Positions 1,919-55,908 of a stretch of DNA of 64,000 nucleotides are shown here, piece by piece. Source of the stretch: an uncultured Burkholderiaceae bacterium. Lineage in GTDB: Bacteria > Pseudomonadota > Gammaproteobacteria > Burkholderiales > Burkholderiaceae_C. The notes below the pieces were generated by a model that was not told where the DNA came from, ran no database searches, and saw only the letters and a list, made by a program, of their open reading frames with translations. Both the position numbers and the translations under genes were made by a program. Within the stretch, counting starts at the first letter, position 1; every line of letters starts with the position of its first letter. The DNA lies in NCBI GenBank assembly GCA_965284315.1, contig OZ260072.1, positions 1,869,243 to 1,933,242 on the forward strand, given 5' to 3'.

Positions 1919-2545
1919 ATGGACACGGTGAGCCGACTCCACCAGTGGTTGGGCGCAGCCGCCAGCGGCCTGGCCATTGCCAGCCGTGCGCCGAGTGACG
2001 ACTGGGCCTTGCTGCGCCAGGCCTGCACCGGCCACCAGCCCAGTGCCCAGAAACTGGTCAAGGCCCTGACGCCGCAGGCCTACGGCCTCGCCATCCGCAT
2101 GGTGGGCCGCCGCGAAGACGCCGAAGACGCGGTGCAGGACGCCTTCATTCGCCTCTGGCGCAGCGCGCCCGACAGCACACGCGGCGCGACGCTGTCGACC
2201 TACTTCAACACCCTCGTGCTCAACCGCTGCCGCAGCCTGCTGGGCCGCCGACGCGAGCAGGGCATGGCGCAAGACACGCTGACTGAACTGCAGGACGCGC
2301 AGCAGGCCCCGGACGAACCCCACACGCTGGCGGCACTGAGCCCGCACGCCAGCCAATCGCGTTTACTGCAGGCGCTGGACAGGCTGCCCGCCCGCCAGCG
2401 CATGGCACTCGCCATGTGGGCCTATGCCGACGCCTCGGTGGCCGACATTGCACACACGCTGGCCATCGACGCCAACGCCGCGCACCAGCTGCTGCACCGC
2501 GCCAAAGGGGCCCTGCGCGCCTGCCTCGAAGGAAACACCCGATGA
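1919..2545 (+). CDS. ECF-type RNA polymerase sigma-70 family factor
   Basis: Region 2 (DAVQDAFIRLWRS) and region 4 HTH (RQRMALAMWAY...SVADIAHTLAIDANAAHQLLHRAKGAL). Confidence 0.85.
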   Translation: MDTVSRLHQWLGAAASGLAIASRAPSDDWALLRQACTGHQPSAQKLVKALTPQAYGLAIRMVGRREDAEDAVQDAFIRLWRSAPDSTRGATLSTYFNTLVLNRCRSLLGRRREQGMAQDTLTELQDAQQAPDEPHTLAALSPHASQSRLLQALDRLPARQRMALAMWAYADASVADIAHTLAIDANAAHQLLHRAKGALRACLEGNTR

Positions 2546-2856
2546 AGACGAACCCGCCTCTTGGCGACGACGCGGCCCTCCAGCAGGCCCTCAAGGCCTT
2601 GCCCGAGCCCATGGACACACAGGCCTTGCAGCAACGGGTGCTGGCCAGCTGGCAGGCGCAACACCCAACGGCCCCCGCGCTTCCTTGGGGCGGCGTGCTG
2701 GCGCTCGGTGCGCCCAGGCGCTGGCTGCTGGGCAGTGCCACATTGGCGCTGGGCTTGGGTCTGGCCGTGGGCCTCTGGTTGCAGCGGCCCGACCCGGTGC
2801 TGCAGGAGCTGCTGCAGCTTGACGTGCTGTCGCAAATGGCCGCTGGCGAGATGTAG
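2542..2856 (+). CDS. putative membrane anti-sigma factor (small single-pass protein)
   Basis: ATG at 2542 overlaps the sigma stop (ATGA). One hydrophobic helix, WLLGSATLALGLGLAVGLWL. The longer track ORF from 2416 overlaps the sigma gene and is unlikely. Confidence 0.5.
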   Translation: MKTNPPLGDDAALQQALKALPEPMDTQALQQRVLASWQAQHPTAPALPWGGVLALGAPRRWLLGSATLALGLGLAVGLWLQRPDPVLQELLQLDVLSQMAAGEM

Positions 2857-2863
2857 CGCGGCC

Positions 2864-3238
2864 ATGGCTTCCAGCCCATCGGCCAACCACGACTTTGCAC
2901 AGTACTGCTGCGAACTGCTCGCGCCCATCGGGCCGTGCAGCGCGCGGCGCATGTTTGGCGGTTTTGGCATTGCCACCCGCGGCCTGACGGTGGCGTTGAT
3001 CGCCGACCTGGGCGAGGGCGAACGGCTTTGGCTCAAGGCCAACGACGCGAGCCGCAGCCACTTTGAGGCGGCAGGCTGCACCCGCTTCATCTACCTGGCC
3101 AAAGGCGTTGCCAAAAGCATGAACTACTACAGCGCGCCCGACGAAGCCATGGACTCCCCCCACGCGATGGCGCCGTGGGCGGAACGGGCGCTGGCAGCGG
3201 CGCTGCAGGCGCGTGCACCGAAGAAAAAGCGTCAATAG
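2864..3238 (+). CDS. TfoX/Sxy N-terminal domain family protein
   Basis: RRMFGGFGIATRGLTVALIAD...LWLKAN pattern typical of the TfoX N-terminal domain. Internal ATG at 2864 chosen; the upstream part of the track ORF overlaps the previous gene. Confidence 0.65.
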   Translation: MASSPSANHDFAQYCCELLAPIGPCSARRMFGGFGIATRGLTVALIADLGEGERLWLKANDASRSHFEAAGCTRFIYLAKGVAKSMNYYSAPDEAMDSPHAMAPWAERALAAALQARAPKKKRQ

Positions 3239-6111: not shown

Positions 6112-6180
6112 TTTGCTATTGAATTTGTAGCTGTATCGCAAGGTTTTACTAAGGCTTGAAGCCAAGATGGCTTTAAATTG
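6112..6180 (+). repeat. dispersed low-GC repeat element, copy A (intergenic, after slt)
   Basis: tttgctattgaatttgtagctgtatcgcaaggttttactaaggcttgaagccaagatggctttaaattg. It aligns along its length with the copies at 8171, 17975, 21790, 44564, 54191 and 62104. Confidence 0.8.
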
Positions 6181-6225
6181 AACGCGGTTGGGGCTGGGAG
6201 GCCGCTTCAGCGCAAAATCGGGGCT

Positions 6226-7192: not shown

Positions 7193-7882
7193 ATGCTGAC
7201 GCTCTACATCGGCAACAAGAACTACTCGTCGTGGTCCATGCGGCCCTGGGTGCTGTTGAAGCAGGCGGGCATCCCGTTCCAGGAAACCAAGGTCCGGTTT
7301 GACTCGTTCGAGCCTGGCTCTGCGTTCAAGGAAGCGCTGGGCCGCATCAGCCCGGTGGGCAAGGTGCCGGTGTTGGTGGACGGCGACCTGGTGGTGTGGG
7401 ACACGCTGGCCATTGCCGAGTACCTGGCCGAGACAGTCCCCGACAAGCAGCTGTGGCCGGCAGACGCCGCAGCCCGCGCACGGGCCCGCAGCGTCTGCGC
7501 CGAAATGCACGCCGGCTTTGGCGCGCTGCGCCACCACTGCCCGATGAACATCGAGGCCCACCTGCCCGAGGTGGGCGCGCGCCTCTGGCGCGAACAACCC
7601 GCGCTGCAGGCCGACGTGCAGCGCCTGGTGGCCATGTGGCAAGGCCTGCTGGCGCAACATGGCGGGCCGTTGCTGTTTGGCCGCTTCAGCGTGGCCGACG
7701 CCTTTTTTGCCCCCGTCTGCAGCCGCATCCAGACCTACGCGCTGCCGGTGCCCGACGACATCCGCGCCTACATTGCCCGGGTGCTGGCGCTGCCCGGCGT
7801 GGCCGCGTGGGTGGCCGACGCGCTGGCCGAGCGCGATTTTCTGGCTTTCGAAGAACCCTACCGCAGCCACCGGCCGGCGTAG
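7193..7882 (+). CDS. glutathione S-transferase family protein
   Basis: N-terminal thioredoxin-like GST domain (LYIGNKNYSSWSMRPWVLL, VPVLVDGDLVVWDTLAIAEYL) plus a C-terminal helical domain. Confidence 0.85.
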   Translation: MLTLYIGNKNYSSWSMRPWVLLKQAGIPFQETKVRFDSFEPGSAFKEALGRISPVGKVPVLVDGDLVVWDTLAIAEYLAETVPDKQLWPADAAARARARSVCAEMHAGFGALRHHCPMNIEAHLPEVGARLWREQPALQADVQRLVAMWQGLLAQHGGPLLFGRFSVADAFFAPVCSRIQTYALPVPDDIRAYIARVLALPGVAAWVADALAERDFLAFEEPYRSHRPA

Positions 7883-7891
7883 GACCCAGCC

Positions 7892-9127
7892 ATGCAGATC
7901 TACAGGGTTGGGGGCGCGGTGCGCGACGCTTTGCTCGGCTTGCCGGTGCACGACGTGGACTGGGTCGTGGTGGGTGCCACCCCCGAAGAACTGGTCGCCG
8001 CCGGTTACCTGCCGGTGGGCAAAGACTTCCCGGTGTTCCTGCACCCCCAAACGCGCGAGGAGTACGCACTCGCCCGCACCGAACGCAAGACCGCGCGCGG
8101 TTACCGCGGCTTCACGGTCAGCGCCGCGCCCGACGTGACGCTGGAACAAGACCTGGCTCGGCGCGACCTCACTATCAATTCCATAGCGCAACCGCAAGAA
8201 AATACACAGGCTGATGGCCTGATAGACCCCTATTCAGGCCAGCAAGACCTGCGTGACCGTGTGTTGCGGCACGTGACCGACGCTTTCCGCGAAGACCCGG
8301 TGCGTATCCTGCGCGTGGCACGCTTCGCGGCGCGTTTTGCCGACTTCACCGTGGCGCCTGAAACCCTGGCGCTGATGCGCGAGATGGTGGCCGACGGCGA
8401 GGTCGATGCGCTGGTGCCCGAACGCGTCTGGCAAGAGCTGTCGCGCGGGCTGATGGCCGCCACGCCCTCGCGCATGTTCGGCGTGCTGCGCGACTGCGGC
8501 GCGCTGACAGTGCTGCTGCCCGAGGTGGACAAACTCTGGGGCGTGCCCCAACGGGCCGACTACCACCCCGAAATCGACACCGGCGTGCACCTGATGATGG
8601 TGCTGGACATGGCCGCGCAACTGGGCGCCCCGCTGACGGTGCGCTACGCCGCGCTGTGCCACGACCTCGGCAAGGGCACCACCCCGGCCGACGTGCTGCC
8701 GCGCCACATCGGCCACGAAGAGCGCAGCGTGAAGCTGCTCAAGGGCGTGAGCGAACGCCTGCGCGTGCCGACCGACTGCCGTGAACTGGCCGAGGTGGTG
8801 GCGCGCGAACACGGCAACATCCACCGCAGCGGGGAGTTTGGTGCCGCTGCACTGGTGCGCCTGTTGGAGCGTTGCGACGCCATCCGCAAACCGCAGCGTT
8901 TTGACGAGGTGCTGCTGGCCTGCGAGTGCGACGCGCGGGGCCGGCTGGGCCTGCACGACAGCCCCTACCCGCAGCGCGCCCGTTTGCGCCAGGCGCTGGA
9001 CGCGGCGCTCGCCGTGCCCACCGCGCAGGTGGCCGAACAGGCGCAGGCGGCCGGGCTCTCAGGCAAAGCGGTGGGGGAGCAGGTGGCGGCCGCACGGGTG
9101 GCGGCGGTGGCGCAGGCGCTGGGCTGA
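7892..9127 (+). CDS. cca: multifunctional CCA-adding enzyme / 2'-nucleotidase / phosphatase
   Basis: [10 protein letters not shown] and DVDWVV nucleotidyltransferase motifs, RRDLTIN, and a C-terminal HD domain (HDLGK). Confidence 0.95.
8171..8238 (+). repeat. dispersed repeat element, copy embedded in frame in cca
   Basis: actatcaattccatagcgcaaccgcaagaaaatacacaggctgatggcctgatagacccctattcagg. Low-GC codons (ata, aat, tca, tat) in an otherwise high-GC gene. Confidence 0.65.
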
Positions 9128-9326: not shown

Positions 9327-9351
9327 GCCGCCAGTGTAGGCGCAGACCGGT

Positions 9352-10221
9352 TCAGCGCTGGATGCCCCAGCGCCGCACCGTGAGCCGCTCCAGCGTCTGG
9401 AAGCCGAGGTTTTCCACCAGCAGGCCGATCAGGATCACCAGCGCCAGCCCCGCGAACACCTTGTCGGTGTACAGCTCGTTGCGGTTCTGCGCGATGTACC
9501 AGCCCAGCCCGCCGCGGCCGGACGACGCGCCAAACACCAGTTCGGCCGCGATCAGCGTGCGCCAGGCAAAGGCCCAGCCGATCTTCAGGCCCGACAGGAT
9601 GGACGGCAGCGCCGCCGGCACCAGGATCTGCAGCACGTAGTGCAGCCCGCGCAGGCCGTAGTTGCGCCCGGCCATGCGCAGCGTGTCGGGCACGCCCTGA
9701 AAACCGGCGTAGGTGGCCAGCGCCAGCGGCCACAGCACCGAATGCACCAGCACAAACACCAGGCTGCCCTGGCCCAGGCCAAACCACAGCAGCGCCAGCG
9801 GCAGCAGCGCAATGGCGGGCAGCGGGTTGAACATCGCGGTGAGGGTGGACAGCAGGTCGCGGCCCACCTGGGTGGACACCGCCAGCGTGGTCAGCACAAA
9901 AGCGGCCAGCACGCCCAGCGCATAGCCCTGCAGCAGCACGGCCAGCGAGATGCGCGCTTTCACCAGCAGCTCGCCGCCCACCAGCCCTTCGGCCAGCGCC
10001 CGGGCGGTTTGCCCGAAGGTGGGCAGCAGCAGCTCGTTGGCCTGGAAGCGCGCCACCCCTTCCCACAGGGCGGCCAGCAGCACCAGCAGCAAGCCTTTGC
10101 GCAGCCAGCCCTGTTGCCACAGGCGGGTCTTCCAGGGCAGTGGCCGTTCTGGGGCCACGTCGCCGAGCGCGGCCAGTGGCTGTTCGTACTCGGGCCGGAT
10201 CGGCGGCAACACCGCGCTCAT
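9352..10221 (-). CDS. ABC transporter permease (NitT/TauT family)
   Basis: Multi-helix BPD-type inner membrane component. 4-nt overlap with the upstream ATPase gene. Confidence 0.9.
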   Translation of the reverse strand: MSAVLPPIRPEYEQPLAALGDVAPERPLPWKTRLWQQGWLRKGLLLVLLAALWEGVARFQANELLLPTFGQTARALAEGLVGGELLVKARISLAVLLQGYALGVLAAFVLTTLAVSTQVGRDLLSTLTAMFNPLPAIALLPLALLWFGLGQGSLVFVLVHSVLWPLALATYAGFQGVPDTLRMAGRNYGLRGLHYVLQILVPAALPSILSGLKIGWAFAWRTLIAAELVFGASSGRGGLGWYIAQNRNELYTDKVFAGLALVILIGLLVENLGFQTLERLTVRRWGIQR

Positions 10222-11063
10222 GCGGCCCGCCGTGTGGCAGCGGTGGTGGGCGACGCGGCTTCGTCAAACAGCAGCCGGTGGATGCGTTCGGTGGTGGCCT
10301 GGAATTCGGCGCTGCCGGTGCTGTGCAGGCCAAAGTTGTGGGCGTTCAGCTCGGCGCGCATGCGGCCGGGGTGGGGCGACAGCAGCGCCACCCGGTGGCC
10401 CAGCACCAGCGCTTCTTCAATCGAGTGGGTGACAAACAGCAGCGTGAAGCGCACGTCGTCCCACAGCGCCAGCAGTTCTTCCTGCATCTTGCGGCGGGTC
10501 AGCGCGTCGAGTGCGGCAAAGGGCTCGTCCATCAGCAGCACGCGGGGTTGCATGGCCAGCGCACGGGCAATCGCCACCCGCTGCTTCATGCCACCGGACA
10601 GCGTGTGCGGGTAGGCGTGGGCAAAGGCCGACAGGCCCACCTTGTGCAGGCAGTCCAGCGCGCGTTCCTGTGCCTCTTGGCGCGGCAGGCGGCGCGAGGC
10701 CAGCAGCGGGAAGGCGACGTTCTGCAGCACCGTTTTCCACGGCGGGAGCTGGTCAAACTCCTGGAATACCACCACGCGGTCGGGCCCGGGTTCGGTGATG
10801 CGCTGGCCATCGAGGCGAATCTCGCCTTCCACCGGCGCCACAAAACCGGCCACCGCTTTCAGCAGCGTGGATTTGCCGCAGCCCGAGGGCCCCAGCAGCA
10901 CAAAACGCTCGCTCTCGTGCACGTCAAAACACACCCGCTGCGTGGCCCGCACCACCCGTTCGGGCGTGCGGTACTCCAGGCTCACGCTGTCCACCTGAAG
11001 CGCCGGTGTTGCCTCGCTCACGGCGGGAGCCACGGCGCGCAGCGGGGTGGCGTGCAGGACCAT
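10218..11063 (-). CDS. ABC transporter ATP-binding protein (NitT/TauT family)
   Basis: Walker A GPSGCGKST, signature LSGGMKQRVAIARAL, Walker B LLMDEPF. Confidence 0.92.
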   Translation of the reverse strand: MVLHATPLRAVAPAVSEATPALQVDSVSLEYRTPERVVRATQRVCFDVHESERFVLLGPSGCGKSTLLKAVAGFVAPVEGEIRLDGQRITEPGPDRVVVFQEFDQLPPWKTVLQNVAFPLLASRRLPRQEAQERALDCLHKVGLSAFAHAYPHTLSGGMKQRVAIARALAMQPRVLLMDEPFAALDALTRRKMQEELLALWDDVRFTLLFVTHSIEEALVLGHRVALLSPHPGRMRAELNAHNFGLHSTGSAEFQATTERIHRLLFDEAASPTTAATRRAA

Positions 11064-12091
11064 CAGTTGGCTTTGGCGTTGTGCGCGTCGTCAAAGAAAT
11101 AGTCTTTGACCGTGGGCGCGTTCTTGATGGCGCCGACCCGGTGCATGAACTGCGCCAGCGGCAGCGTGTTCTGCGGCGTGATCTGGAACTGCACGTCCTT
11201 GCTCTGCAGGATGGACAGCAGCAGCTTGCGGTCGATGTTGGACTTGTTGATGCGCAGGTAAATGTCGGCCGCCGCTTCGGGGTTGGCGCTGACAAAGCGG
11301 GCCGCCTGGGCCAGTGCGTCGGTCAGGGCCTTGTAGGTCTTGGGGTTGTCGGCGCGGTACTTCTCGGTGGCGTACAGCACCGTGGCCGAGGCCGGGCCAC
11401 CCAGCACGTCGTAAGACTTCAACACCACCCGGGCGTTGGGGTTGCCGGCCAGCAGTTGCTCCTGAAAGGGCGTGTTGCTGAAGTGCGCGGTGATCTCGGT
11501 GCCGCCCTTGAGCAACGCGGCGGTGGCGTCGGGGTGTGGCAGCGCGACCTGGTTCTTGTCGAGCTTGTTGAACTGGGCGTCGCCCCACAGCTTGGCCGAG
11601 GCCAGTTGCAGGATGCGCGACTGGACCGACACGGTGACCGCCGGCAGCGCGATGCGGTCCTTGTCGGTGAAGTCGGCAATCGTCTTGACGTTGGGGTTGG
11701 TGGTGACGAGGTAGTTGGGGAAGTTGCCGAGCGAGGCCACGCCACGCACGTTCTGCCGGCCTTTGGTGCGGTCCCAAATGGTCAGCAAGGGGCCCACGCC
11801 AGCGCCGGCGATGTCGATCTGTCCCGCCAGCAGCGCGTCGTTGATGGCCGAGCCGCCCGAGAGTTTGATGAACTCGACCTTGACGTTGTCGACCCCTTGG
11901 GCCTTGGCGTTTTTCTCAATGAGTTGCAGGTCCTGTGCGATGTTGAGCAGCAGGTAGACCACGCCAAACTGTTCGGCAATGCGGATCTGCCCTTCGGCGT
12001 GGGCCTGGCTTGGCAGGCAGGTGGCGAGCAGCAGGGCGGTGGCGGTGCCGAGTGCCGCGATGCGGCGGCGCAATGGGGTGCGGGTGGTCAT
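11063..12091 (-). CDS. ABC transporter periplasmic substrate-binding protein (sulfonate/taurine/nitrate type)
   Basis: RR-containing signal peptide and NMT1/SsuA-like sequence. 1-nt overlap with the ATPase gene. Confidence 0.85.
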   Translation of the reverse strand: MTTRTPLRRRIAALGTATALLLATCLPSQAHAEGQIRIAEQFGVVYLLLNIAQDLQLIEKNAKAQGVDNVKVEFIKLSGGSAINDALLAGQIDIAGAGVGPLLTIWDRTKGRQNVRGVASLGNFPNYLVTTNPNVKTIADFTDKDRIALPAVTVSVQSRILQLASAKLWGDAQFNKLDKNQVALPHPDATAALLKGGTEITAHFSNTPFQEQLLAGNPNARVVLKSYDVLGGPASATVLYATEKYRADNPKTYKALTDALAQAARFVSANPEAAADIYLRINKSNIDRKLLLSILQSKDVQFQITPQNTLPLAQFMHRVGAIKNAPTVKDYFFDDAHNAKAN

Positions 12092-12118
12092 GGGATTTTT
12101 TTAAGGCAATGGAAAGGG

Positions 12119-13018
12119 TCAGACGGGCACATCGCCCTCGATGGTGGTGCGGTACATCTTGCGGCGCAGGTGGTTGGGCGTGCCGCCGGCCAGGTGCATC
12201 AGCGAGCGGTTGTCCCAGAACACCAGGTCGTGCGGCGCCCACCGGTGGCGGTAGATGTGCTCGGGCCGCACGCTGTGGTCAAACAGCTGCTGCAGCAGCT
12301 CGCGGCTTTCGTCGTCGGGCAGGCCGACGATGCGCGTGGTGAAGTGTTCGCTCACAAACAGCGCCTGGCGCCCAGTTTGCGGGTGGGTGCGCACGATGGG
12401 GTGGCTGACCGGGGCGAGTTGCGCCAGTTGCGCCGGCGTCAGGTCAGGCCGCCAGGGGCTGCGTTTTTGCAGGTCGGCGTAGTGGGCCAGGTAGGTGTGC
12501 TCGGCGCGGCGGCCCTGCACAGCCCGGCGCAGCGGCGCGGGCAGCGTGTCCCAGGCCCGGTGCATGTTGGCAAACAGCGTGTCGCCACCTTCTTCGGGCA
12601 GCTCCTGGGCGTGCAGGAAGGAACCCAGGCTCGGGCGTTCCTTGTACGACAGGTCGGAATGCCAGTAGGCCCCCGCATCGCCCAAGCCTATGGGCTGGCC
12701 GTTCTCGATGATGTTGGAGACGATCAGGATGTCGGGGTGCCCGGCCAGCGCAAACTGGTGCAGCACGTGTTTTTGCAGCGGCCCGAAGCGGCGGCTGAAA
12801 TCGATGTGCTGCTGCGGGGTGATGCGCTGGTCGCGCAACACGAGCACGTGGTGCGTCAGGTGGGCCTGCACCAGCGTGGCGAAGTCGTGGTCGTCCAGCG
12901 GGTGGGACAGGTCCAACCCCAGCACCTCGGCGCCCAACGGCGCGTCGAACGCGCGGACGGTGAAAGGGCGGGCGAGTACCGGCGGGGTGCGTTCGGGCGC
13001 AAGGGTGGCAGCGGTCAT
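12119..13018 (-). CDS. TauD/TfdA family Fe(II)/2-oxoglutarate dioxygenase
   Basis: WHSDLSY...GGDTLFANM and the C-terminal ...FWDNRSLMH..R motif set. ATG at 13018 preferred; a GTG at 13069 is an alternative start. Confidence 0.88.
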   Translation of the reverse strand: MTAATLAPERTPPVLARPFTVRAFDAPLGAEVLGLDLSHPLDDHDFATLVQAHLTHHVLVLRDQRITPQQHIDFSRRFGPLQKHVLHQFALAGHPDILIVSNIIENGQPIGLGDAGAYWHSDLSYKERPSLGSFLHAQELPEEGGDTLFANMHRAWDTLPAPLRRAVQGRRAEHTYLAHYADLQKRSPWRPDLTPAQLAQLAPVSHPIVRTHPQTGRQALFVSEHFTTRIVGLPDDESRELLQQLFDHSVRPEHIYRHRWAPHDLVFWDNRSLMHLAGGTPNHLRRKMYRTTIEGDVPV

Positions 13019-13132
13019 GGTCGTCCTGAATGCGGCGTCGGGTGCGCCAGATATCTGGACTCTAGGCACCTTGGCTTCAAACAGGAACGACTGATTCTTT
13101 GGTTGCTAACTGCCAAATCATCTATGGTGCAC

Positions 13133-14242
13133 CTACAGCGTGTGGCTGCGGTCGCCGTGCGCAAACCCGAGCGGCTCCCACAGCGCCCCCTTGCAAAAGC
13201 CGATCACCTTGAACAACTCGCCCATTTCGTGCTCGGTCATCAGCTTTTGTGCCATCGCGCGTTCGGCGGTGCTGGCGTCGGCCAGCAGGTCGAGCAGGCC
13301 GCAGTTCATCAGGAAACGCGCCTGCGTGGTGTAGCCCAGCACCTGCAGCCCGGCGTCTTGCCCGGCCAGCGCGATGCCGGTGAAGTTGACGTGGGCGGTG
13401 ATGTCTTTCAGCCCCACGGCTTCCAGCGGGTCGGTGCTGGCCAGGTGTCCCTGGTGGCACATCAGCGTGCCCATGTGGCGCTGTGGGTGGTAGTACTCGC
13501 TTTCGGGAAAACCGTAGTCGAGAAAGAAGGCCGCACCGCGTTCCAGCCGGTCCGCCAGCGTGGCAATGAAGGCCTCGGCCTGGGGGTGGATTTCGGTCAG
13601 GTAGTCGTGGGGGCCGGGGATGTCCAGCGGGGCGCGCAGCGGGGTCGCTTGGTCGGCAAAGACCAGCGCGCCGTTGTCCAGCGCCACGCCACGTTCGTGC
13701 CAAATACCGCTCTGGCGAAAGAGCAGTTGCACCGGCATCGCGTCCAGCACCTCGTTGCCGACCACCACGCCGCTGAAGCGCGCAGGCAGTTCGCTGGCCC
13801 ACTGCACCCGGTCCCCGTGTGCTTGCAGCGTGGCCTGCTGGCGCGCGCGCAGGGTGCTGGAGAGGTCGACGATGGTGTAGCGGCGCACGCGGTCGCCCAG
13901 GGCGTCCAGCAGTTGCAGCGCCAGCGCGCCGGAGCCCGCACCGAATTCCCACACCTCGTCGGTGCCGGTGTGTTGCAGCGCCTCGGCCACCTGGGCAGCC
14001 AGCGTGCGGCCGAACAGCGGTGTCAGCTCCGGCGCCGTCACAAAGTCGCTGCCGGAGGCGGGCAGGGCGCCGAATTTGCGCGAGTCGTTGGCGTAGTAGC
14101 CAAGGCCAGGGGCGTACAGCGCCTGGGCCATGAAGGCGTCAAAGGGGAGCCAGCCGCCAGCGCGGGTGATGGCCTGCGCGATCTGCTGCTGCAGGGCGCT
14201 CGTTAAACTAAGGCTTGTTTCCACCCGGCGATTGTCCGCCAT
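13133..14242 (-). CDS. SAM-dependent methyltransferase, MidA/NDUFAF7 (DUF185) family
   Basis: DFVTAPELTPLFG and EFGAGSGALA motifs. The 622-aa track ORF is an upstream read-through; ATG at 14242 chosen (a GTG at 14224 is possible). Confidence 0.8.
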   Translation of the reverse strand: MADNRRVETSLSLTSALQQQIAQAITRAGGWLPFDAFMAQALYAPGLGYYANDSRKFGALPASGSDFVTAPELTPLFGRTLAAQVAEALQHTGTDEVWEFGAGSGALALQLLDALGDRVRRYTIVDLSSTLRARQQATLQAHGDRVQWASELPARFSGVVVGNEVLDAMPVQLLFRQSGIWHERGVALDNGALVFADQATPLRAPLDIPGPHDYLTEIHPQAEAFIATLADRLERGAAFFLDYGFPESEYYHPQRHMGTLMCHQGHLASTDPLEAVGLKDITAHVNFTGIALAGQDAGLQVLGYTTQARFLMNCGLLDLLADASTAERAMAQKLMTEHEMGELFKVIGFCKGALWEPLGFAHGDRSHTL

Positions 14243-14254
14243 CCATTCCCCCAC

Positions 14255-15067
14255 ATGGCCCAGCCTGCCAACCCCGTTGCATTGCCCCGCACCGTGCTCG
14301 TCACCGGCGCCGCCCGCCGGTTGGGGCGCGAGATCGCGCTGGCGCTGGCCGCCGGGGGCTGGCGGGTGGCCGTGCACTACCGGGCATCGGCCGAAGATGC
14401 TCTTAAAACCGTAGCAGACTGTGCAGCCTTGACTAAGGGCAGCGCTGCTTTTTGTGCCGATTTGTCGGACGAGGCGGCGGTGTGCGGCCTGTTGCCCCGC
14501 GTTGTGGCCGACATGGGCGCGGTGGACGCGGTGGTCAACAGCGCGTCCACTTTCGAGCACGACGACGCAGCCAGTTTTGGTTTTGCGGCGCTGGACCGGC
14601 ACCTGCGCAGCAACACCGGCGCACCGATCCTGCTGGCGCAGGCACTGCACACCCACCTGGCCACGCGCGAGGGCGCGCGCGGCGCGGTGGTGAACCTGCT
14701 CGACCAGAAACTGTGGAACCCCAACCCCGATTTCCTCAGTTACACGCTCTCCAAAGCCGCGCTGGAAGCCGCCAACACCCTGCTGGCGCTGGCGCTGGCG
14801 CCGCGTGTGCGGGTGGTTGGCGTGGCCCCAGGGCTGACGCTGACCAGCCACATGCTGAGCGATGACAAGTTCCAGGCGCTGCACAAACTGAGCCCGCTGG
14901 GTCGATCGTCCACACCGGCCGATGTGGCCAGCGCGGTGCGCTTTGCGCTGGAGAACAACTCGATCACCGGCACCACGCTGTTGGTGGATGGCGGCCAGCA
15001 CCTGATGAAATTTGAGCGCGACTTCTCGTTGATGAACCCTTGCGGGACAGACCGCAGCGCCGCGTAG
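14255..15067 (+). CDS. SDR family oxidoreductase, pteridine reductase (FolM)-like
   Basis: VLVTGAARRLGREIALAL cofactor motif and YxxxK (YTLSKAAL). Located directly upstream of folB. Confidence 0.8.
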   Translation: MAQPANPVALPRTVLVTGAARRLGREIALALAAGGWRVAVHYRASAEDALKTVADCAALTKGSAAFCADLSDEAAVCGLLPRVVADMGAVDAVVNSASTFEHDDAASFGFAALDRHLRSNTGAPILLAQALHTHLATREGARGAVVNLLDQKLWNPNPDFLSYTLSKAALEAANTLLALALAPRVRVVGVAPGLTLTSHMLSDDKFQALHKLSPLGRSSTPADVASAVRFALENNSITGTTLLVDGGQHLMKFERDFSLMNPCGTDRSAA

Positions 15068-17974: not shown

Positions 17975-18047
17975 CCCTGGTTTCAGTGTCAAACAGGCAT
18001 TCAGCCTCAGTAAAATCTAGCGTTTTAGCTACAAAATAAATAGCAAA
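17975..18047 (-). repeat. dispersed repeat element, copy D (intergenic, abuts the start codon of the histidine phosphatase gene)
   Basis: The reverse complement reads tttgctatttattttgtagctaaaacgctagattttactgaggctgaatgcctgtttgacactgaaacc. Confidence 0.8.
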
Positions 18048-18691
18048 TGCAAGCCGTTCGCCTGATTGCCGTGCGCCATGGCGAGACCGCCTGGAATGCC
18101 GACGGCCGCATCCAGGGCCAGTTGGACATTGGCCTCAACGACACCGGGCTGTGGCAAGCGCAACGCCTGGGCCGGGCGTTGTCAGAAGAGATGTTTCATG
18201 CCGTGCACACCAGCGACCTGCTGCGTGCCCACCAGACTGCACAAGCCCTGGCGGACGTGGCGGCTCTGCCGGTGCAGGGAAACACAGGTTTGCGTGAACG
18301 CCACCTGGGCGACTTTCAGGGGCGAACGGTGCCGGAGATCGAGGCACTGTGGCCCGACCAGTACCGCGCCTGGCGCGAGCGCGTGCCCGACTTTGCCCCT
18401 TCCGGTGGCGGTGAATCGTTGCTGCAATTCCGCGACCGCGTCATGGCCACGGTGAACACATTGGCCCGCACGCAGGGGCAAGGCCAGATCGCGGTGGTCG
18501 CGCACGGCGGGGTGATGGACATCTTGTACCGTGCGGCCACCGGCCAGGAACTGCAAACCCCACGCACCTGGACACTGGCCAACGCCGCCATCAACCGCCT
18601 GCTGTGGACGCCCGACAGCCTCACCCTGGTGGGCTGGGCCGACGCGCAGCACCTGAACCGCACAGCGCGGGACGACGACAGCCTCAGCTGA
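18047..18691 (+). CDS. histidine phosphatase (phosphoglycerate mutase) family protein
   Basis: RHGETAWN catalytic motif and a downstream ...VAHGGV histidine. Confidence 0.85.
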
Positions 18692-21778: not shown

Positions 21779-21789
21779 GCCCCAAACGC

Positions 21790-21860
21790 CGATTTTTTAA
21801 CGAAACCGGCCTCCAGCCTTAGTGAAGACTGGACATTCAGCTATGGAATTTGTAGTATGG
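21790..21860 (-). repeat. dispersed repeat element, copy B (intergenic, after ybeY)
   Basis: The reverse complement reads ccatactacaaattccatagctgaatgtccagtcttcactaaggctggaggccggtttcgttaaaaaatc. Confidence 0.8.
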
Positions 21861-21990
21861 AAACGACGGAACTGCACCGTGTTCAGGTGCTTCATGCGGG
21901 CATCTGCCTTCGAGGTCATGGCTAACATCCACCACAAGAGGGTCTGTGTCCACGGACCGCTATTGACAACCCGTTTCCATTGACGTTAAG

Positions 21991-27009: not shown

Positions 27010-28239
27010 TTACAGGAATTTGCCCACCGCACCCAAGGCGATAGGGCCAGCGATTGGCACTTCCTGAACCAGGTTGGTGATGGGCACAAGGGCTGGCAAG
27101 AGCACGTCGCCAACGGGGGCCAGAAGACCTGCCGATACGCCGCCCAAACCAGTCGCCGTCAGAACCTGGTGGAAAGGCAGGTCGTTGCTCAGCTGGTCGC
27201 CACCGCCAATGCCGGCAACAATGTCGTCCACGTACACGATCTGGTCGGTCAGGCCGGTGATCAAGTCGAGCGTGGCGTTGAGTTGCTTGCCGTCGGTGAA
27301 GTCACCGATCAGAGGCAGGTCTACTAAAGCACCTTCAATCGCATTGGTCAACGAACCCAAGATACCTTGCTCGGTCACCAGGAATTGCAGGTAGTCTTCC
27401 GACAGCAAACCACCGCTGTAGGCGCCGATGAAGGCGGTGACAGCGGGCAAGTCACCACCGACGACCATGCGCGTGATTTCATTTACCAGTGGGATGCCTT
27501 CGGTGAGGGCAACAGGGCGGGTGGCGAGTTCATACAAGAGGATTTCTTCACCGACCGAGTTGCCACCCAACAGGCTTTGGGCAAGCCCAAACAAAGGCGT
27601 GCCGTACAGCGGGGTCACCAGGAAGCTGGAGAGCGAACCACCTTCAACACCTTGGCCAACGATGCCGTTGAGGGCTTCGCCTAGGATGGGGATGCCGTAC
27701 GTTGCGTCGGCTAACGTGGCCAGCAAGCCGCCGATTGGCGAAGAGCTGCTGCCGCCGACGTCGCCAGTGCCGGAAGTACCCGCACCACCGCCCAAGCCAC
27801 CCAGACCGCCGCTGAGGAGGTCAAGGCCGGGCAGGCCACCACCGCCCAGGCCGCCGAGTGCGTCCACACCAGGCAGGGCCGCTGTGGCAGTGCCGCTACC
27901 CAAACCGCCGGTCAGGCCAGACAACAGGTCCAGCGGCGAACCGCCACCGGTCAAACCACCCAGCAGGTCCAATGGCGAGCCGCCACCGGTCAAACCACCC
28001 AGCAGGTCCAGCGGCGAACCGCCACCGGTCAAACCACCCAGCAGGTCCAATGGCGAGCCGCCACCGGTCAAACCACCGAGGATGCTCAGAGGTGAAGAAG
28101 AGCCTTCTTCGCCGCCACCAGTCAGGCCGGTCAACAGGCTCAGCGGGGAACCTGCGCCACCCGACAGACCGCCCAAGAGGCCGGTCAGGCTGCCGAGTCC
28201 GCCACCTGCGCTCAACAAAGAGTCAAAAGGAAGTGCCAT
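27010..28239 (-). CDS. orphan acidic Gly/Leu-rich repeat protein
   Basis: RBS GGAGA 8 nt upstream of the ATG. Codon usage matches the two upstream genes. N-terminal third is made of GSPLDLLGGLTGG repeats. No recognisable family, signal peptide or cofactor motif. Confidence 0.6.
   Translation of the reverse strand: MALPFDSLLSAGGGLGSLTGLLGGLSGGAGSPLSLLTGLTGGGEEGSSSPLSILGGLTGGGSPLDLLGGLTGGGSPLDLLGGLTGGGSPLDLLGGLTGGGSPLDLLSGLTGGLGSGTATAALPGVDALGGLGGGGLPGLDLLSGGLGGLGGGAGTSGTGDVGGSSSSPIGGLLATLADATYGIPILGEALNGIVGQGVEGGSLSSFLVTPLYGTPLFGLAQSLLGGNSVGEEILLYELATRPVALTEGIPLVNEITRMVVGGDLPAVTAFIGAYSGGLLSEDYLQFLVTEQGILGSLTNAIEGALVDLPLIGDFTDGKQLNATLDLITGLTDQIVYVDDIVAGIGGGDQLSNDLPFHQVLTATGLGGVSAGLLAPVGDVLLPALVPITNLVQEVPIAGPIALGAVGKFL
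27892..28086 (-). repeat. in-frame 39-bp tandem repeats (core 27931-28086, four units in ABAB pattern, plus degenerate flanking units)
   Basis: Plus-strand units cagcggcgaaccgccaccggtcaaaccacccagcaggtc and caatggcgagccgccaccggtcaaaccacccagcaggtc alternate. Both encode DLLGGLTGGGSPL. Confidence 0.9.
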
Positions 28240-32182: not shown

Positions 32183-32611
32183 ATGAAGTTGTCTGCAAAA
32201 CGAATGGCGCGGGGTTTTACCCTGATCGAGTTGATGGTCGTGCTGGTCATCATTGGTGTACTGGCTGCGCTGATTGTTCCCAACGTGCTGGACCGTGCTG
32301 ACGACGCGCGGGTGACCGCCGCCCGCACCGATGTCAACAACATGGTGCAGGCCCTGAAGCTCTACAAACTCGACAACCAGCGCTTTCCCACCGCCGAGCA
32401 AGGTCTGCAGGCGCTGGTGACCAAGCCCACGGTTGGGCCGATTCCACCCAACTGGCGCCCTTACCTCGACAAGTTGCCCAAGGACGCATGGGGCCAGCCA
32501 TACCAGTACCTGAATCCAGGTGTACACCAGGAAATTGACGTGTTGTCGTTCGGGGCGGACGGGCAGGCCGGCGGTGAAGGGAAAAATGCCGACATCGGCA
32601 GCTGGCAATAA
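32183..32611 (+). CDS. gspG: type II secretion major pseudopilin GspG
   Basis: Prepilin leader plus GFTLIELMVVLVIIGVLAALIVP and the conserved GspG body (DAWGQPYQY, SFGADGQ). Confidence 0.93.
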   Translation: MKLSAKRMARGFTLIELMVVLVIIGVLAALIVPNVLDRADDARVTAARTDVNNMVQALKLYKLDNQRFPTAEQGLQALVTKPTVGPIPPNWRPYLDKLPKDAWGQPYQYLNPGVHQEIDVLSFGADGQAGGEGKNADIGSWQ

Positions 32612-32633
32612 AACCACCTGGCGCCCTACGTGA

Positions 32634-33086
32634 ATGCGATGCATGAATGGCTTTTCTGTCACGTCAGACCATCGCACGCGCGGTTTCACGCTGCTCGAGT
32701 TGTTGGTCGTCATTGCCTTGATTGCCATTGCGTCTGCCAGTGTCAGCTTTGCCTTCCGTGACTCGTCCGACACCCAGCTCCAGCGTGAAGCGGACCGCCT
32801 GGCAGCGCTGCTGGACTCGGCCCGCAGCCGCTCGCGCACCTTGGGCATGCCGGTGTACTGGCGTGCTGTGCCGGGTGGTTTTCGGTTCGAAGGCCTGCCA
32901 CTGGGCACCTTGCCCGAGCGCTGGCTGGTCGATGGCACGACCGTGGTCAACAACGGTGTGCTGATCCTGGGGCCTGAGCCCATCCTCGCGCGGCAGGGGA
33001 CGGTCATCGCGCTGCAGGGACGGCGCCTGCTGGTGGCAACCGACGGTGTGCGCCCGTTTGTGGTTCTGCCAGTGGGGGCGCCATGA
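32634..33086 (+). CDS. gspH: type II secretion minor pseudopilin GspH
   Basis: GFTLLELLVVIALIAI prepilin N-terminus; position after gspG. Confidence 0.8.
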   Translation: MRCMNGFSVTSDHRTRGFTLLELLVVIALIAIASASVSFAFRDSSDTQLQREADRLAALLDSARSRSRTLGMPVYWRAVPGGFRFEGLPLGTLPERWLVDGTTVVNNGVLILGPEPILARQGTVIALQGRRLLVATDGVRPFVVLPVGAP

Positions 33087-33448
33087 CACGCCCGTATCTG
33101 TCACGCGGTTTCACATTGATTGAGGTGCTGGTCGCGCTGGGCATTGTCTCGGTGGCGCTGATTGCCGGCATGCAGGCCAGCAGCGCGCTGACACGCAATG
33201 CCCAGCGGCAGGCCGATGGCTTGTTGGCGGAACTGTGCGCTGAGAACGAGTTGGTCAAAATCCGCTTGGCCGAGCAGTTTCCTGGTGTCGGTGAGAGCAC
33301 TTTCACCTGCACCCAGGTCGAACGTGTGCTGGAGGGGCGGTTGACCGTGGCGACCACGCCCAACCCTAATTTTCTGCGTGTCGATGCGCAGGTGTTTGAT
33401 GGGCCGTACAGCCTGTTGCGCATCTCTACCGTGGTGGGGCGTTTCTGA
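33083..33448 (+). CDS. gspI: type II secretion minor pseudopilin GspI
   Basis: GFTLIEVLVALGIVSVAL. ATGA overlap with gspH. Confidence 0.85.
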   Translation: MTRPYLSRGFTLIEVLVALGIVSVALIAGMQASSALTRNAQRQADGLLAELCAENELVKIRLAEQFPGVGESTFTCTQVERVLEGRLTVATTPNPNFLRVDAQVFDGPYSLLRISTVVGRF

Positions 33449-34125
33449 TGGCACGTCTTGCAAGACCGGCTGCGGGATTCACCCTGATCGAGCTCCTGGT
33501 CACGATCAGCATCATGGCCTTGATGACCCTGCTGAGCTGGCGTGGCATCGACGGCATGATGCGAACCAAAGACCAGCTGTCGGCGCGCAGCGACCAGGTG
33601 ATGACGCTGCAGACCGCCCTGACCCAGTGGACGGTGGACCTCGACAACCTGGCCGAAACCCGCGTGGTGAGCGCGGCGGACTACGACGGCAGCGTGCTGC
33701 GCATGACACGCCGTGATGCGGTCAGCCCAGCCGAGGGCTTGCGGGTGGTGGCGTGGACCCGCCGTCTTGCGGACGGCAATGCCTTCTGGGTGCGCTGGCA
33801 GTCACCCAACGTCCGAACCCAGTCTGACTTGTTGGCGGCCTGGGCCAAGGCGCAGCAATGGGGCCGAGAGCCAACGCCCGAAGACCGCGCCTTGGACATC
33901 CCCCTCGCGGTGCTGACCGATTGGCAGCTCTTTTATTACCGCGACAATGCCTGGAGCAACCCCCTCTCCAGCGCGGCGGACCCCAACCAACCTGTGGCCA
34001 GTGGACTGAATGCGCCACCCAAAGGGGTCAGGCTGGTGTTGGCCCTGGCGCCCGGTCAGCCGTTCGCGGGTGTTTTGACCCGCGATTGGGTGAGACCGCT
34101 GGTGGGTGGCGGGAAATCGCTGTGA
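33448..34125 (+). CDS. gspJ: type II secretion minor pseudopilin GspJ
   Basis: GFTLIELLVTISIMALM. 1-nt overlap with gspI (TGATG). Confidence 0.85.
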   Translation: MARLARPAAGFTLIELLVTISIMALMTLLSWRGIDGMMRTKDQLSARSDQVMTLQTALTQWTVDLDNLAETRVVSAADYDGSVLRMTRRDAVSPAEGLRVVAWTRRLADGNAFWVRWQSPNVRTQSDLLAAWAKAQQWGREPTPEDRALDIPLAVLTDWQLFYYRDNAWSNPLSSAADPNQPVASGLNAPPKGVRLVLALAPGQPFAGVLTRDWVRPLVGGGKSL

Positions 34126-43419: not shown

Positions 43420-43506
43420 GCCAGCCCAACCACCGGGTTGAACTTTCCCGGCCAGGGCAGCCTCTGTCTTGCCAGCCTCCTTTTTGCTTCTACCGAGAAC
43501 CTGCCC

Positions 43507-45285
43507 ATGCGCCTGTCTGCCAAATTCGCGTCGTTCACCGCGTTCTGCCGCAAGGTCTGGGCGCTGTCGGTGCCGTACTTCCAGTCTGACGAAAAATGGA
43601 AAGCGCGTGCGCTGCTGGCCGCCATCGTGGTGTTGAACCTGGCGGCGGTGTACATGCTGGTGCTGCTCAACGAGTGGAACCGGGTGTTTTACGACGCGCT
43701 GCAAAACAAGGACGCCGCTGTGTTCTGGGCGCAGCTGGTGCGGTTCTGCTGGCTCGCGTTCGGGCTGATTGTGATCTCGGTCTACCGCTTCTACCTGACG
43801 CAGCTGCTGGAAATGCGCTGGCGCGCCTGGATGACCGGCGCCTACCTTGGCCGCTGGTTGGCCAACCAGGCCTTCTACCGCATCGAACTGGCCCGGTACG
43901 CCGCCGCCCACGGGGCCAGCCCCGACAACCCTGACCAGCGCATCCAGCAGGACCTGAACCTGTTCACCAGCCAGACCATTTCGCTCAGCATGGGGCTGCT
44001 CAACGCGCTGGTCACGCTGGTGAGTTTTGTGGGCATCCTGTGGGGGCTGAGCGGTGCTTTCGCCTTCGATCTGGGCGGCAGCAGCTACACCATTCCCGGC
44101 TTCATGGTCTGGGCGGCGGTGGCCTACTGCGGCGTCGGCAGCGTGATCACGCACTACATTGGCCGGCCACAGATCAAGCTCAACTTCGAGCAGGAACGCG
44201 TTGAGGCCGACTTTCGCCACCACCTGGTGCGGGTGCGGGAGTACAGCGAATCGATCGCGCTCGACAAAGGCGAGGCGGTCGAACGCCAGCACCTGGGCCT
44301 GCGGTTTGACCGGGTGCTGGTGAACTACCTCCGGCTGATCAAGGCACAGAAGAACCTGACCTGGTTCACCGTGGGCTTTGGCCAGGCGGCGGTGGTGTTC
44401 CCGTTTGTGGTGGCCGCACCGCGCTTTTTCAGTGGCGCCATCCAGTTGGGTGAGCTGATCCAGATCTCGTCGGCCTTCGGCCGGGTGCAGGACTCGCTGA
44501 GCTGGTTTGTGGACAATTACGCCGGTTTGGCCAGTTGGCGGGCCACCACCGACCGTTTGACCGGGTTTGAAGCCTCTTTTAGCCGGTTGGCCTCAGTGAA
44601 ACCTGGTGGTAGTGCTATCAATACTGTAGTAAGTGACGGTTCACTCCAAGCCCACGACCTGACCTTGGCCCTGCCCGACGGCGGCCTGCTGCTCGCCAAC
44701 GCCTCGCTGCAGGCCGAGCCGGGCGAGGCGGTGTTGCTGCAGGGGCCTTCGGGCAGCGGCAAGTCCACCCTGTTCCGGGCGCTGGCGGGCATCTGGCCGC
44801 ATGCCACCGGGCAGGTGGCGCTGCCGGCCGACAGCATGTTCCTGCCGCAACGCCCCTATTTCCCCAACGGCCCGCTGCGCGACGCGCTGGCCTATCCCCT
44901 GCCCGCTGCACAGTACAGCGACGCGGCGCTGAAACAGGCGCTGACCGACGCGCTGTTGCCCGATTTGGCCGACAGCCTCGACGAAGAAGGCGCCTGGGGC
45001 CAAAAACTCTCGGGCGGGGAGCAGCAGCGCCTGGCGGTGGCGCGGGTGCTGTTGAAACGGCCCAAGTGGGTGTTTGCCGACGAGGCCACCAGCGCGCTGG
45101 ACGAAGCGGCCGAAGCCACCCTCTACCAGCGCCTGCAGGCGCTGGTGCAGTCAACCGGCGGGGCCTTGGTGTCCATCGCGCACCGGCCCGGCGTGGCGGC
45201 ATTTCACAACCGCCAGTGGGTGCTCACGCCGCAGGCCAACGGCGCGCCCGCCGCCTACGGGTTGAGCGCCACGCCGGCGGTGTAA
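43507..45285 (+). CDS. ABC transporter ATP-binding protein/permease (SbmA/BacA-type TMD fused to NBD, YddA-like)
   Basis: N-terminal SbmA_BacA-like membrane domain. C-terminal NBD with [35 protein letters not shown]. Confidence 0.85.
44564..44637 (-). repeat. dispersed repeat element, copy embedded in frame in the ABC transporter linker
   Basis: The reverse complement reads cttactacagtattgatagcactaccaccaggtttcactgaggccaaccggctaaaagaggcttcaaaccc. It encodes [26 protein letters not shown]. Confidence 0.7.
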
Positions 45286-53618: not shown

Positions 53619-54197
53619 ATGAAAAACATCGTCATCCTGATTTCCGGCAGCGGCTCCAACATGGCGGCCATTGTGGAAACTGCCCAGCGCGAGCGCTGGT
53701 CCGACACGCTGGGCGCCACAGTGGCGGCGGTCATCAGCAACAAGCCGGCGGCAGCCGGTCTGGCGGTGGCCAATGCGCTGGGCGTGCCCACACAGGTGCT
53801 GGACCACACCGGTTTTGCCAACCGCGAGGCGTTTGACGTCGCCTTGGCCCAGGCCATCGACGTTCACACCCCAGCGCTGGTGGTACTGGCCGGCTTTCTG
53901 CGCATTCTCACGCCGGCTTTTGTGAACCACTACGCCGGCCGGCTGGTCAACATCCACCCTTCGCTGTTGCCAGCTTTTCCGGGGCTGAACACGCACCAGC
54001 GGGCCATCGACAGCGGCTGCCGCTTCGCCGGTGCCACCGTGCACCGCGTGACGGCTGAACTGGACCACGGCCCCATCCTCGACCAGGCGGTGGTGCCAGT
54101 GCTTCCCGGCGACACGGCGGCCACGCTGGCCGCCCGGGTGCTGGCGCAAGAGCACCGCATCTACCCCCAGGCGGTTAAAACGCTCCTGAAAGCATAG
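53619..54197 (+). CDS. purN: phosphoribosylglycinamide formyltransferase
   Basis: ILISGSGSNM, NIHPSLLP and HRVTAELDHGPI motifs. Confidence 0.92.
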   Translation: MKNIVILISGSGSNMAAIVETAQRERWSDTLGATVAAVISNKPAAAGLAVANALGVPTQVLDHTGFANREAFDVALAQAIDVHTPALVVLAGFLRILTPAFVNHYAGRLVNIHPSLLPAFPGLNTHQRAIDSGCRFAGATVHRVTAELDHGPILDQAVVPVLPGDTAATLAARVLAQEHRIYPQAVKTLLKA

Positions 54198-54250
54198 CTG
54201 TACCGCAAGGTTTCACTAAGGCTCAAGCCGTATTGGGCTTGAAATCGGCC
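54191..54250 (+). repeat. dispersed repeat element, copy C (left-truncated; spans the purN stop and the DUF1653 gene 3' end)
   Basis: catagctgtaccgcaaggtttcactaaggctcaagccgtattgggcttgaaatc. It contains a 7-bp stem hairpin, tcaagcc-gtattg-ggcttga. Confidence 0.75.
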
Positions 54251-54492
54251 GCCGCAGACGCTGCCACCGGCGCAAACCGGGCCTGGGAGCGGCCAGCCAC
54301 CTCCACCGTGCTGTTGAACATCGTCGCTGGCCGCACCCACAGGCCGTGTTCACCGTACAGCGCACGGTAGAGCGTCAAGTATTCCTGTGTTTCGCTGTGG
54401 CGCACGGTGTCTATCACCTCGTACAAATTCCCTTTGTAGTGGCGGTACAGGCCGGGTGGGGTGATGAGCGGGGGCAGGTGGTCGTCAGACAT
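54223..54492 (-). CDS. DUF1653 domain-containing protein
   Basis: GLYRHYKGNLYEV...HSETQEYLTLYRALYG core. Internal ATG at 54492 chosen. Confidence 0.75.
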   Translation of the reverse strand: MSDDHLPPLITPPGLYRHYKGNLYEVIDTVRHSETQEYLTLYRALYGEHGLWVRPATMFNSTVEVAGRSQARFAPVAASAAADFKPNTA

Positions 54493-55807: not shown

Positions 55808-55908
55808 CGTGTAACCGGCATTTAGAGGCGCACGACTGGCGAAACTTCCCCGAAACAACGCGAAAGTACGACAATACGGGGTTATTTGTATGAGAAACAC
55901 TGTTGACT

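Follow-up and report, generated by a model that had tools for sequence, protein, structure and literature searches.

The question raised by this 64,000-nt stretch of an uncultured Burkholderiaceae genome (hereafter the window) is what a short, AT-rich sequence that recurs along it represents: a sequence-only reading had picked out seven sites and likened them to REP, MITE and terminator-associated elements. The repeat is real: the window holds six certain copies, and a doubtful one inside cca, of a ~70-bp AT-rich element. Profiles from which each copy in turn had been left out recovered every claimed copy with nhmmer, and support for the dispersed family came also from an independent profile, made of 25 copies from other genomes and containing no window sequence (Table 1). 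On the latter, A, B, C, D, F and G stood firm (E-values 1.6e-17 to 3e-10) while the seventh claimed site, copy E, was marginal (2e-3). Three stretches taken for degenerate pieces were not significant in the window (14396-14438, E 0.07-1; 14203-14218, E>1; 63275-63304 on the minus strand, E 0.8-1.8). A common core is visible in the alignment of the seven claimed copies, and the consensus drawn up by eye proved essentially right; that of 31 copies is TTTGCTATtgaatTcATAGCTgtAcCGCcAGGTTTCACTAAGGCTTGAGGCCaATTTGGCTTGAAAA, from an alignment whose conservation profile is inflated, 21 of its copies having been retrieved through an exact pattern. The low GC content was borne out as well, the claimed sites forming islands of 40% GC in a window of about 65%. 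That the copies look alike only by chance, or through the base composition of AT-rich intergenic DNA, an idea encouraged by the choice by eye of AT-rich islands in a GC-rich genome, has next to no probability, since leave-one-out and fully independent profiles reach E-values down to 1e-17, other AT-rich islands of the window give no match and 25 further copies lie in other genomes; it is refuted for the six certain copies and possible only for copy E, 14396-14438 and 63232-63304.

Table 1. Copies of the repeat and an element-like stretch in the window, with nhmmer E-values and gene context.
Feature	Extent	Strand	Extent matched by independent profile	E, independent profile	E, leave-one-out	Context
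Copy A	6112-6183	+	6112-6181	1.6e-17	1.4e-12	Intergenic; 17 nt after SLT transglycosylase stop (6094)
Copy E (doubtful)	8167-8239	+	8169-8225	2e-3 (marginal)	2.8e-4	Inside cca
Copy B	17975-18046	-	17979-18049	1.9e-12	7e-11	Fills 81-nt spacer from DUF4136 gene (stop 17965) to gpmB
Copy C	21786-21861	-	21788-21858	6e-13	3e-7	8 nt after ybeY stop (21778); upstream of FecR-like gene
Copy F	44560-44636	-	44561-44634	3e-10	1.3e-8	Inside fused SbmA/BacA-type ABC transporter gene (43504-45285, +)
Copy D	54179-54252	+	54179-54250	8.7e-17	9e-10	Between convergent purN and DUF1653 genes
Copy G	62104-62177	+	62105-62170	1.6e-10	1.1e-9	Inside lolA (GTG 62075; SD AAGGAA 62063-62068)
Element-like stretch	63232-63304	-		0.8-1.8 (not significant)		Antisense of rarA/mgsA

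The best matches of the RuvB and LolA proteins bore the names Polaromonas, Rhodoferax and Albidiferax, which places the host within Comamonadaceae. An exact core pattern, TAGCNNNANCNCNAGNTTTNACTRAGGC, scanned over 185,579 species genomes, found 28 loci. The MAG JAZKIY01 ('Pseudomonadota bacterium') accounts for 21 of these and an uncultured Burkholderiaceae MAG for one; the remainder (Microcoleus, Lentisphaeria, Hyunsoonleella) are partial and chance-like matches. nhmmer applied to the 28 loci retained 25 full copies, all in the congeneric JAZKIY01 and the one Burkholderiaceae MAG. Further copies do, then, exist in related genomes, and the family is peculiar to one small clade within the uncultured Comamonadaceae. 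Viral contigs and plasmids yielded no match, on which ground carriage of the repeat by phage or plasmid was rejected. Rfam 15 gave no match at gathering score across the whole window, and only noise for copy A and a hairpin-bearing relative at E up to 10; a literature search on Comamonadaceae repeats found only an unrelated GC-rich element, BRE. The repeat is thus undescribed, being absent from Rfam and from the literature searched.

Syntenic loci of 8-20 kb from close relatives were retrieved through the DUF4136 protein and LolA, both suitable for ranking relatives, RuvB being too conserved for this purpose. In order of nucleotide identity to the window, the relatives are L030 (GCA_017495185.1, ~98%), L033 (GCA_964605005.1, ~92-94%), L013 (JAZKIY01, 87-94%), L120 (ERZ26165800, ~89%), L038 (Logan SRR7414939, ~88-90%), L036 (ERZ26165887, ~83-85%), L037 (GCA_027490925.1, ~82%) and L029 (GCA_040384165.1, ~80%); Rhodoferax ferrireducens (L039) serves as outgroup, with no identity figure.

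Comparison of these loci also bears on other parts of the window, which contains no tRNA genes. A block of tauD, NMT1-type binding protein and ABC transport genes (~9340-13135) is present in the window and L036 and absent from the 98%-identical L030, and so is a strain-level indel. The 406-aa ORF at 55903-57123 (+) joins an N-terminal fatty-acid desaturase part to a Pfam DDE_Tnp_ISL3 domain (aa 283-403); since the same architecture, of 404 aa, is found in L037, L038 and L120, it has the appearance of a conserved gene, not of an inserted IS. Repetition of other kinds is seen at 27905-28192, where a 409-aa ORF without Pfam match (27010-28239, minus strand) contains five head-to-tail 39-nt (13-codon) repeats (identity to the reference copy 73-100% for the first four, 60% for the fifth), and at 32212-33515 and 42437, where a 42-nt stretch encoding a prepilin-type N-terminus (GFTLIELMVV..) recurs in four consecutive small genes belonging to a type II secretion / type IV pilin-like cluster.

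The four intergenic copies had been described as sitting just downstream of a stop codon. All of them do lie within 0-16 nt of the upstream stop; they also nearly fill their short spacers, and so abut the next gene equally. Copy A ends 44 nt 5' of the ATG (6228) of an NAD-epimerase gene, the flanking genes being identified by Pfam, and has an orthologue in L030/L031 and L033. Copy B directly abuts the ATG of gpmB (18047) with its left end, ATAGCAAA on the plus strand, and no Shine-Dalgarno sequence precedes this ATG. It is orthologous in L030-L036, and the 24 nt beside the ATG are nearly invariant even in L036, where the drift of the remainder has left the copy reduced to these 24 nt; in the more distant L029 the site is empty, 92 nt long and GC-rich. 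Copy C, orthologous in L030, L033 and L036, is the sole copy with a weak terminator-like and a weak promoter-like match. In the window clade it follows ybeY and the next gene is FecR-like; in L029 it is the dtd-ybeY spacer (7690-7790) that carries a repeat, a different AT-rich one with the same left arm (GCTACTGTTTTAATAGCATGTCGCGCTAGTCC..), which adjoins ybeY. Copy D reaches into both of its neighbours: the purN stop TAG (54195-54197) is the TAG of its left-arm ATAGC, and its right arm holds the stop of the DUF1653 gene (TCA 54223-54225, minus strand) together with the last ~8 codons, the Pfam DUF1653 domain ending at aa 103 of 118. It is orthologous in L038 and L120; in L037 it has decayed beyond detection except for the left arm, which encodes the PurN C-terminus. 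JAZKIY01 widens the range of contexts, with copies in either orientation between tandem, convergent (Asd/Amt, AsmA/cytochrome c) and divergent genes, the last including the Pfam-confirmed pairs DUF938/MsrA (L016) and FadL/DUF1223 (L010).

About one copy in six is intragenic. In the forward orientation the consensus, as read from the sequence, contains TAG, TAA and TGA, one in each frame, so that it truncates any gene it enters; in reverse a single frame is free of stops (..QALVKPGGxAI..), and this is the frame read in every reversed intragenic copy. Copy F, conserved at the JAZKIY01 locus L013, is read in this frame and encodes a 28-residue linker, with a GC3 of 38% against about 85% for the ABC-transporter gene. 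Copies in JAZKIY01 genes for WaaA (L022), an AddA/UvrD-like helicase (L021) and a Wzy-type ligase (L028) are likewise reversed with respect to the gene and, like F, give ..(P/R)QALVKP(G/S)(G/D)SAI.. in the same frame. The stretch of WaaA bearing the copy is, by our count, ~17 aa longer than in E. coli WaaA, and the alignment of WaaA to PDB structures begins only after the copy. The ABC-transporter linker is of the same length in 13 homologues, and copy F is therefore not a simple insertion. The doubtful copy E encodes the conserved DLTINSIAQ...LIDPYSG of the cca nucleotidyltransferase head domain at a GC3 of 48%; the Pfam PolyA_pol domain spans aa 4-126 without excess length, so the copy adds none. 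Taken together with the LolA case considered below, copies have been co-opted as the stops of purN and the DUF1653 gene, as a leader without Shine-Dalgarno sequence for gpmB, as an ABC-transporter linker and as part of the LolA signal peptide.

By their defining features, none of the labels REP, MITE and terminator applies to the family. The mini-palindrome noted in the left arm, GCTAY-N7-RTAGC, is present as 5-bp arms around a 7-nt loop, and RTAGC, mostly ATAGC and sometimes GTAGC, occurs in every copy, though TAGC belonged to the pattern by which 21 copies were sought. The hairpin proposed for the right arm is weak and not conserved. RNAalifold found no consensus structure and no pairs in the 31 copies, and prediction of the fold of the consensus, which had been suggested as a check, gave nothing better than its shuffles in either orientation (z -0.7 and -0.1); the central 39 nt average z -0.53 in window-clade copies versus -3.9 in relatives from other genera. 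A structured RNA or REP palindrome was rejected on these results: the imperfect palindrome of about 20-40 nt, able to form a stable hairpin, that goes with the REP/BIME label is found only in the other-genus relatives. Nor are the marks of a MITE present: the left end, TTTGCTATTG, does not match the reverse complement of the right end, ATTTTTCAAG, as terminal inverted repeats would, and across 32 copies the longest match between a copy's two flanks has a mean length of 2.75 nt, against 2.44 nt when flanks are swapped, giving no sign of target-site duplication. Within the window, no IS bearing such ends came to light. A scan for terminators (5-23 kb) found 21, against 15.3 +/- 4.6 expected from shuffles, and of the copies hit only C, weakly; neither terminators nor promoters were enriched. 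This result, and the placing of copies in either orientation between divergent, convergent or tandem genes, rules out a plain terminator role. Two other candidates were discarded: sigma-70 or sigma-54 promoters in either orientation, as no conserved hexamers could be discerned by eye and -10-like positions fall in the variable loop, and a conserved small ORF in the forward frame, as upstream start codons are not conserved in the alignment.

Beyond the window clade, 80 metagenome lolA loci, 761 kb of diverse Comamonadaceae, were examined. These and R. ferrireducens carry related elements with the same left arm and tail and, in addition, a central GC hairpin whose stems covary (AAGCGCTTAT..ATAAGCGCT, CTCGCGCCGT..ACGGCGCGAG, CTGGCGCTT..AAGCGCCAG). 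Family-wide, the element has three modules: an AT-rich mini-palindrome TTGCTAY-N7-RTAGC, a central GC-rich hairpin and a tail GGCC-N5-GGCTTGAAA. In this light the window clade has its own, hairpin-less derivative of a REP-like element. Some relatives form perfect palindromes that carry a T-run and lie between convergent genes (L039 ~5790, L100 18576, L098 19187). In many genera a full copy lies right after the lolA stop, and the 5-12-nt spacer at this place contains a discrete ~73-bp unit in L089 and L104 that is absent from L065, L100 and L098.

The lolA-rarA junction is a 4-nt overlap in the window clade (62734-62737), and in many other genera (compared in L076, L087 and L103) it is an element-bearing spacer of ~75 nt; the L109 spacer is of the same length, but now GC-rich. 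Within rarA/mgsA, the antisense segment listed in Table 1 has the element layout ATTGCTAC..GATAGCTGGTACCGC..GGCCACAATTTGCTTCAAATC, seen also at L042 3372, L070 12996 and L090 12996, among others; it is conserved coding sequence (..LKQIVARAL..PAIE.VA..) in unusually AT-rich codons, and its equivalents in L090 and L070 (12931-13000, minus strand) match the family model at E 4e-4 to 1e-3. In R. ferrireducens a forward-oriented variant (L039 2466-2535) lies in pcm (2397-3215), in the called N-terminal extension of protein-L-isoaspartate methyltransferase, and is open in the lolA frame (..SASGLKSLKP..).

The hairpin-bearing relatives lend some appeal to the view that the copies are cis-acting RNA elements, as in REP/BIME, that is terminators, 3' stabilisers or intercistronic attenuators: the hairpins covary and are stable (mean z -3.9), the palindromes ending in a T-run lie between convergent genes, the copy right after the lolA stop has been kept across genera, and a stop codon lies closely 5' of all four intergenic window copies. 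For the window family we nonetheless hold this view to be very improbable. Its copies share no consensus structure, none of their stems is followed by a T-run, they occupy tandem gene pairs in both orientations as well as spacers between divergent genes, the terminator scan was not enriched and picked out only C, Rfam offered nothing even at E up to 10, and the sequences drift in a near-neutral way.

This drift is apparent from the relatives. Copies A, B, C, D, F and G occupy the same sites in all relatives whose loci extend over them, at ~98%, 88-93% and 82-85% nucleotide identity, and the relatives' loci examined contain no copies of their own. Element identity slightly exceeds that of 4-fold degenerate sites, by about 2 SE (0.877 v 0.82 in L033; 0.759 v 0.68 in L036). 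Stronger purifying selection on the core block was rejected: substitutions between orthologues run at 0.138 for the 20 core positions and 0.136 for the other element positions. The copies are therefore fixed at orthologous sites and decaying at about the neutral, synonymous-site rate, and such shared sites, diverging without extra constraint on the core, fit old copies left by a copy-and-paste process.

A quite different reading is that the copies are functional DNA-level sites maintained in place by selection or drive, for instance targets of a protein that organises the nucleoid or chromosome, or a long motif akin to an uptake signal. It would explain copies within coding DNA that do not change its length (F, G and possibly E lie as GC3-poor patches in permissive protein segments); conservation is at the level of sequence rather than structure; location is independent of orientation; the 40% GC persists across species splits in a 65% GC genome; and there is the slight excess over 4-fold sites. 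Yet core and non-core positions change equally between orthologues, decay has gone beyond detection in L037 and GC-wards in L036 and L109, a density of ~1 per 10 kb and a length of 70 bp are unlike any known uptake or organising site, and the intergenic copies are clearly copy-paste units with discrete ends. We consider this reading unlikely.

The explanation that we prefer, and regard as on balance probable, is that the family is a ~70-bp AT-rich, non-palindromic short interspersed element, a clade-specific and decaying relic of copy-and-paste spread, with several copies since co-opted. Most likely the element is non-autonomous and in decay, and the family as a whole probably has no host function. 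Spread would have occurred in the ancestor of the clade through a trans-acting copy-and-paste activity, one that can do without terminal inverted repeats and does not duplicate its target site; our best guess is an HUH transposase of the RAYT or IS200/IS605 type acting on single strands. The copies are now fixed and decaying as essentially neutral relics, with local exaptation where one came to form the start or end of a gene. The filled and empty post-lolA sites of the ~73-bp unit, the occurrence of copies in all orientations and contexts, their shared reverse frame, the longer WaaA stretch at one copy and the contrast between the structureless window clade and the covarying hairpins of other genera speak for this explanation. 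No insertion polymorphism was seen inside the window clade, and thus we infer mobility rather than observe it. Against the explanation stand the excess conservation over 4-fold sites, small as it is, and the retention of all ~20 core positions in four of the six window copies, somewhat above what neutral decay predicts. Moreover, F and G do not lengthen their host proteins, the ABC transporter and LolA, so simple insertion does not explain them.

Known repeats offer partial parallels to the short interspersed element thus defined. Like REP/BIME sequences and REPINs (RAYT, Y1 HUH), it is tens of bp long, numerous, mostly intergenic and free of terminal inverted repeats and target-site duplications; the RTAG(C) before its central region may correspond to the GTAG/GTGG at the 5' end of REP palindromes, though TAGC helped to define the pattern behind 21 of the copies. 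In its relatives from other Comamonadaceae a GC-rich imperfect palindrome follows RTAGC as one follows GTAG in REPs, and the effects on operon RNA to be expected in those hairpin-bearing relatives resemble those of REPs too. Unlike REP/BIME, the window family has lost the palindrome, is AT-rich instead of GC-rich, forms no inverted doublets and has in-frame intragenic copies. The last trait recalls Rickettsia palindromic elements (RPE), which are inserted in frame into genes for proteins. The window-type family likewise lies inside ORFs in a single permissive frame, and may there supply or substitute a short peptide where the protein tolerates it (WaaA, the AddA-like and Wzy-like proteins, the ABC-transporter linker and the LolA signal peptide); there is no sequence relation to RPE, however, the element is not palindromic, the hosts differ at about phylum level and two intragenic copies bring no lengthening. 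MITEs such as Correia/NEMIS of Neisseria are alike in size class and dispersal, in the way they remodel gene ends and in having now and then a promoter- or terminator-like side effect, but the present repeat shows no terminal inverted repeats, no target-site duplication and, as far as was seen, no related IS. Uptake sequences (USS/DUS) similarly occur in both orientations, in permissive coding segments without change of length and in lineage-specific 'dialects'; they have cores of 9-12 bp at about 1 per kb, kept up by uptake bias, as opposed to 70 bp, ~1 per 10 kb and neutral decay. From Comamonadaceae themselves comes BRE, a betaproteobacterial repeat element of ~90 bp and 69% GC, often in tandem arrays (VNTR), found in Bordetella and in Polaromonas, Rhodoferax, Acidovorax and Delftia, and mostly intergenic, with some copies overlapping gene ends or sitting in ORFs (Hot et al. 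2011, PMC3110155). The present repeat resembles BRE in being short and mostly intergenic with some gene-end-overlapping and intra-ORF copies, and is set apart by that description in its length of ~70 bp, its 40% GC, lower than the window's 65% where BRE exceeds the genome average, and the solitary state of all its copies.

The alternative that survives best concerns origin, and can coexist with the copy-and-paste explanation: the family would be in direct genetic continuity with the 5' part of lolA, either because this segment or a lolA-adjacent copy is the master or because dispersed copies have repeatedly overwritten lolA by gene conversion. In LolA, copy G accounts for the core of the signal peptide, the cleavage site AKA and the start of the mature protein (LFASVLIASSLGLAKA followed by DGLKSLES). 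It matches a model that contains no lolA sequence, as do the lolA genes of L038 (E 1.8e-7) and L120 (1e-10). The encoded stretch, LFASVLIASSLGLAKADGLKSLES, is orthologous to LFATVLIAASAGVACADGLESLEN in other Comamonadaceae genera, and its mature part aligns with solved LolA structures of other bacteria; it is thus native LolA and not an insertion. In other genera, lolA 5' segments match non-lolA DNA 35 times (19 of 81 queries); the seven remaining lolA segments do so 1-14 times (median 3) and shuffles not at all (0). The best match is 80% over 65 nt (E 1e-7). In several genera, then, the start of the lolA coding sequence resembles dispersed elements, and with the match of copy G to the lolA-free model this makes element and lolA 5' end homologous: the gene may have supplied the master, may have taken up the element in an ancient exaptation, or may exchange with it by gene conversion. 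The resemblance extends to lineage-specific detail: lolA of the window clade carries the clade-specific block AGGTTTGGCTAAGGCT, and that of R. ferrireducens instead matches the local palindromic element at 26 of 29 positions. The full element copy directly after the lolA stop in many genera points the same way.

Other observations tell against continuity with lolA. Compared with lolA, the consensus contains an additional base that puts a TGA in frame, so present-day lolA is not the immediate master; lolA of other genera is only marginal with the window-clade model (E 0.03-0.09); the lineage-specific co-variation comes from two lineages only; and within-genome co-variation between the lolA 5' end and the rarA antisense segment failed (permutation p 0.87), a result on which long-range RNA pairing or concerted evolution of these two segments was also rejected. 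We know of no mechanism for dispersing a 70-nt gene fragment. It is accordingly doubtful, if a real possibility, that the family descends from or is in exchange with the gene. In its fullest form, to which we give the same tentative standing, a 70-nt piece of lolA would be the living master, or a recurrent conversion partner, of a Comamonadaceae-wide repeat superfamily, dispersed copies tracking the lolA of their own genome and patching other genes without change of length. The piece would be the signal-peptide core, cleavage site and first helix residues, and the patched targets the ABC-transporter linker and possibly cca. The homology with lolA and the length-neutral coding patches are the unexplained, and the most interesting, parts of the case.

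Short interspersed repeats make up a large share of the DNA between bacterial genes and are poorly catalogued. This family breaks the usual REP and MITE definitions, having neither palindrome nor terminal inverted repeats nor target-site duplication. It shows how the ends of genes can be rewritten, by stops for two convergent genes, a leader without Shine-Dalgarno sequence, a linker and a signal peptide. In practice it is a clade marker, and a source of mis-annotated gene starts and stops in Comamonadaceae MAGs. If the link to lolA is true, this would be a repeat family that, unusually, arose from an essential gene or was homogenised with one, and it would provide a handle on patch-wise sequence replacement in bacteria.
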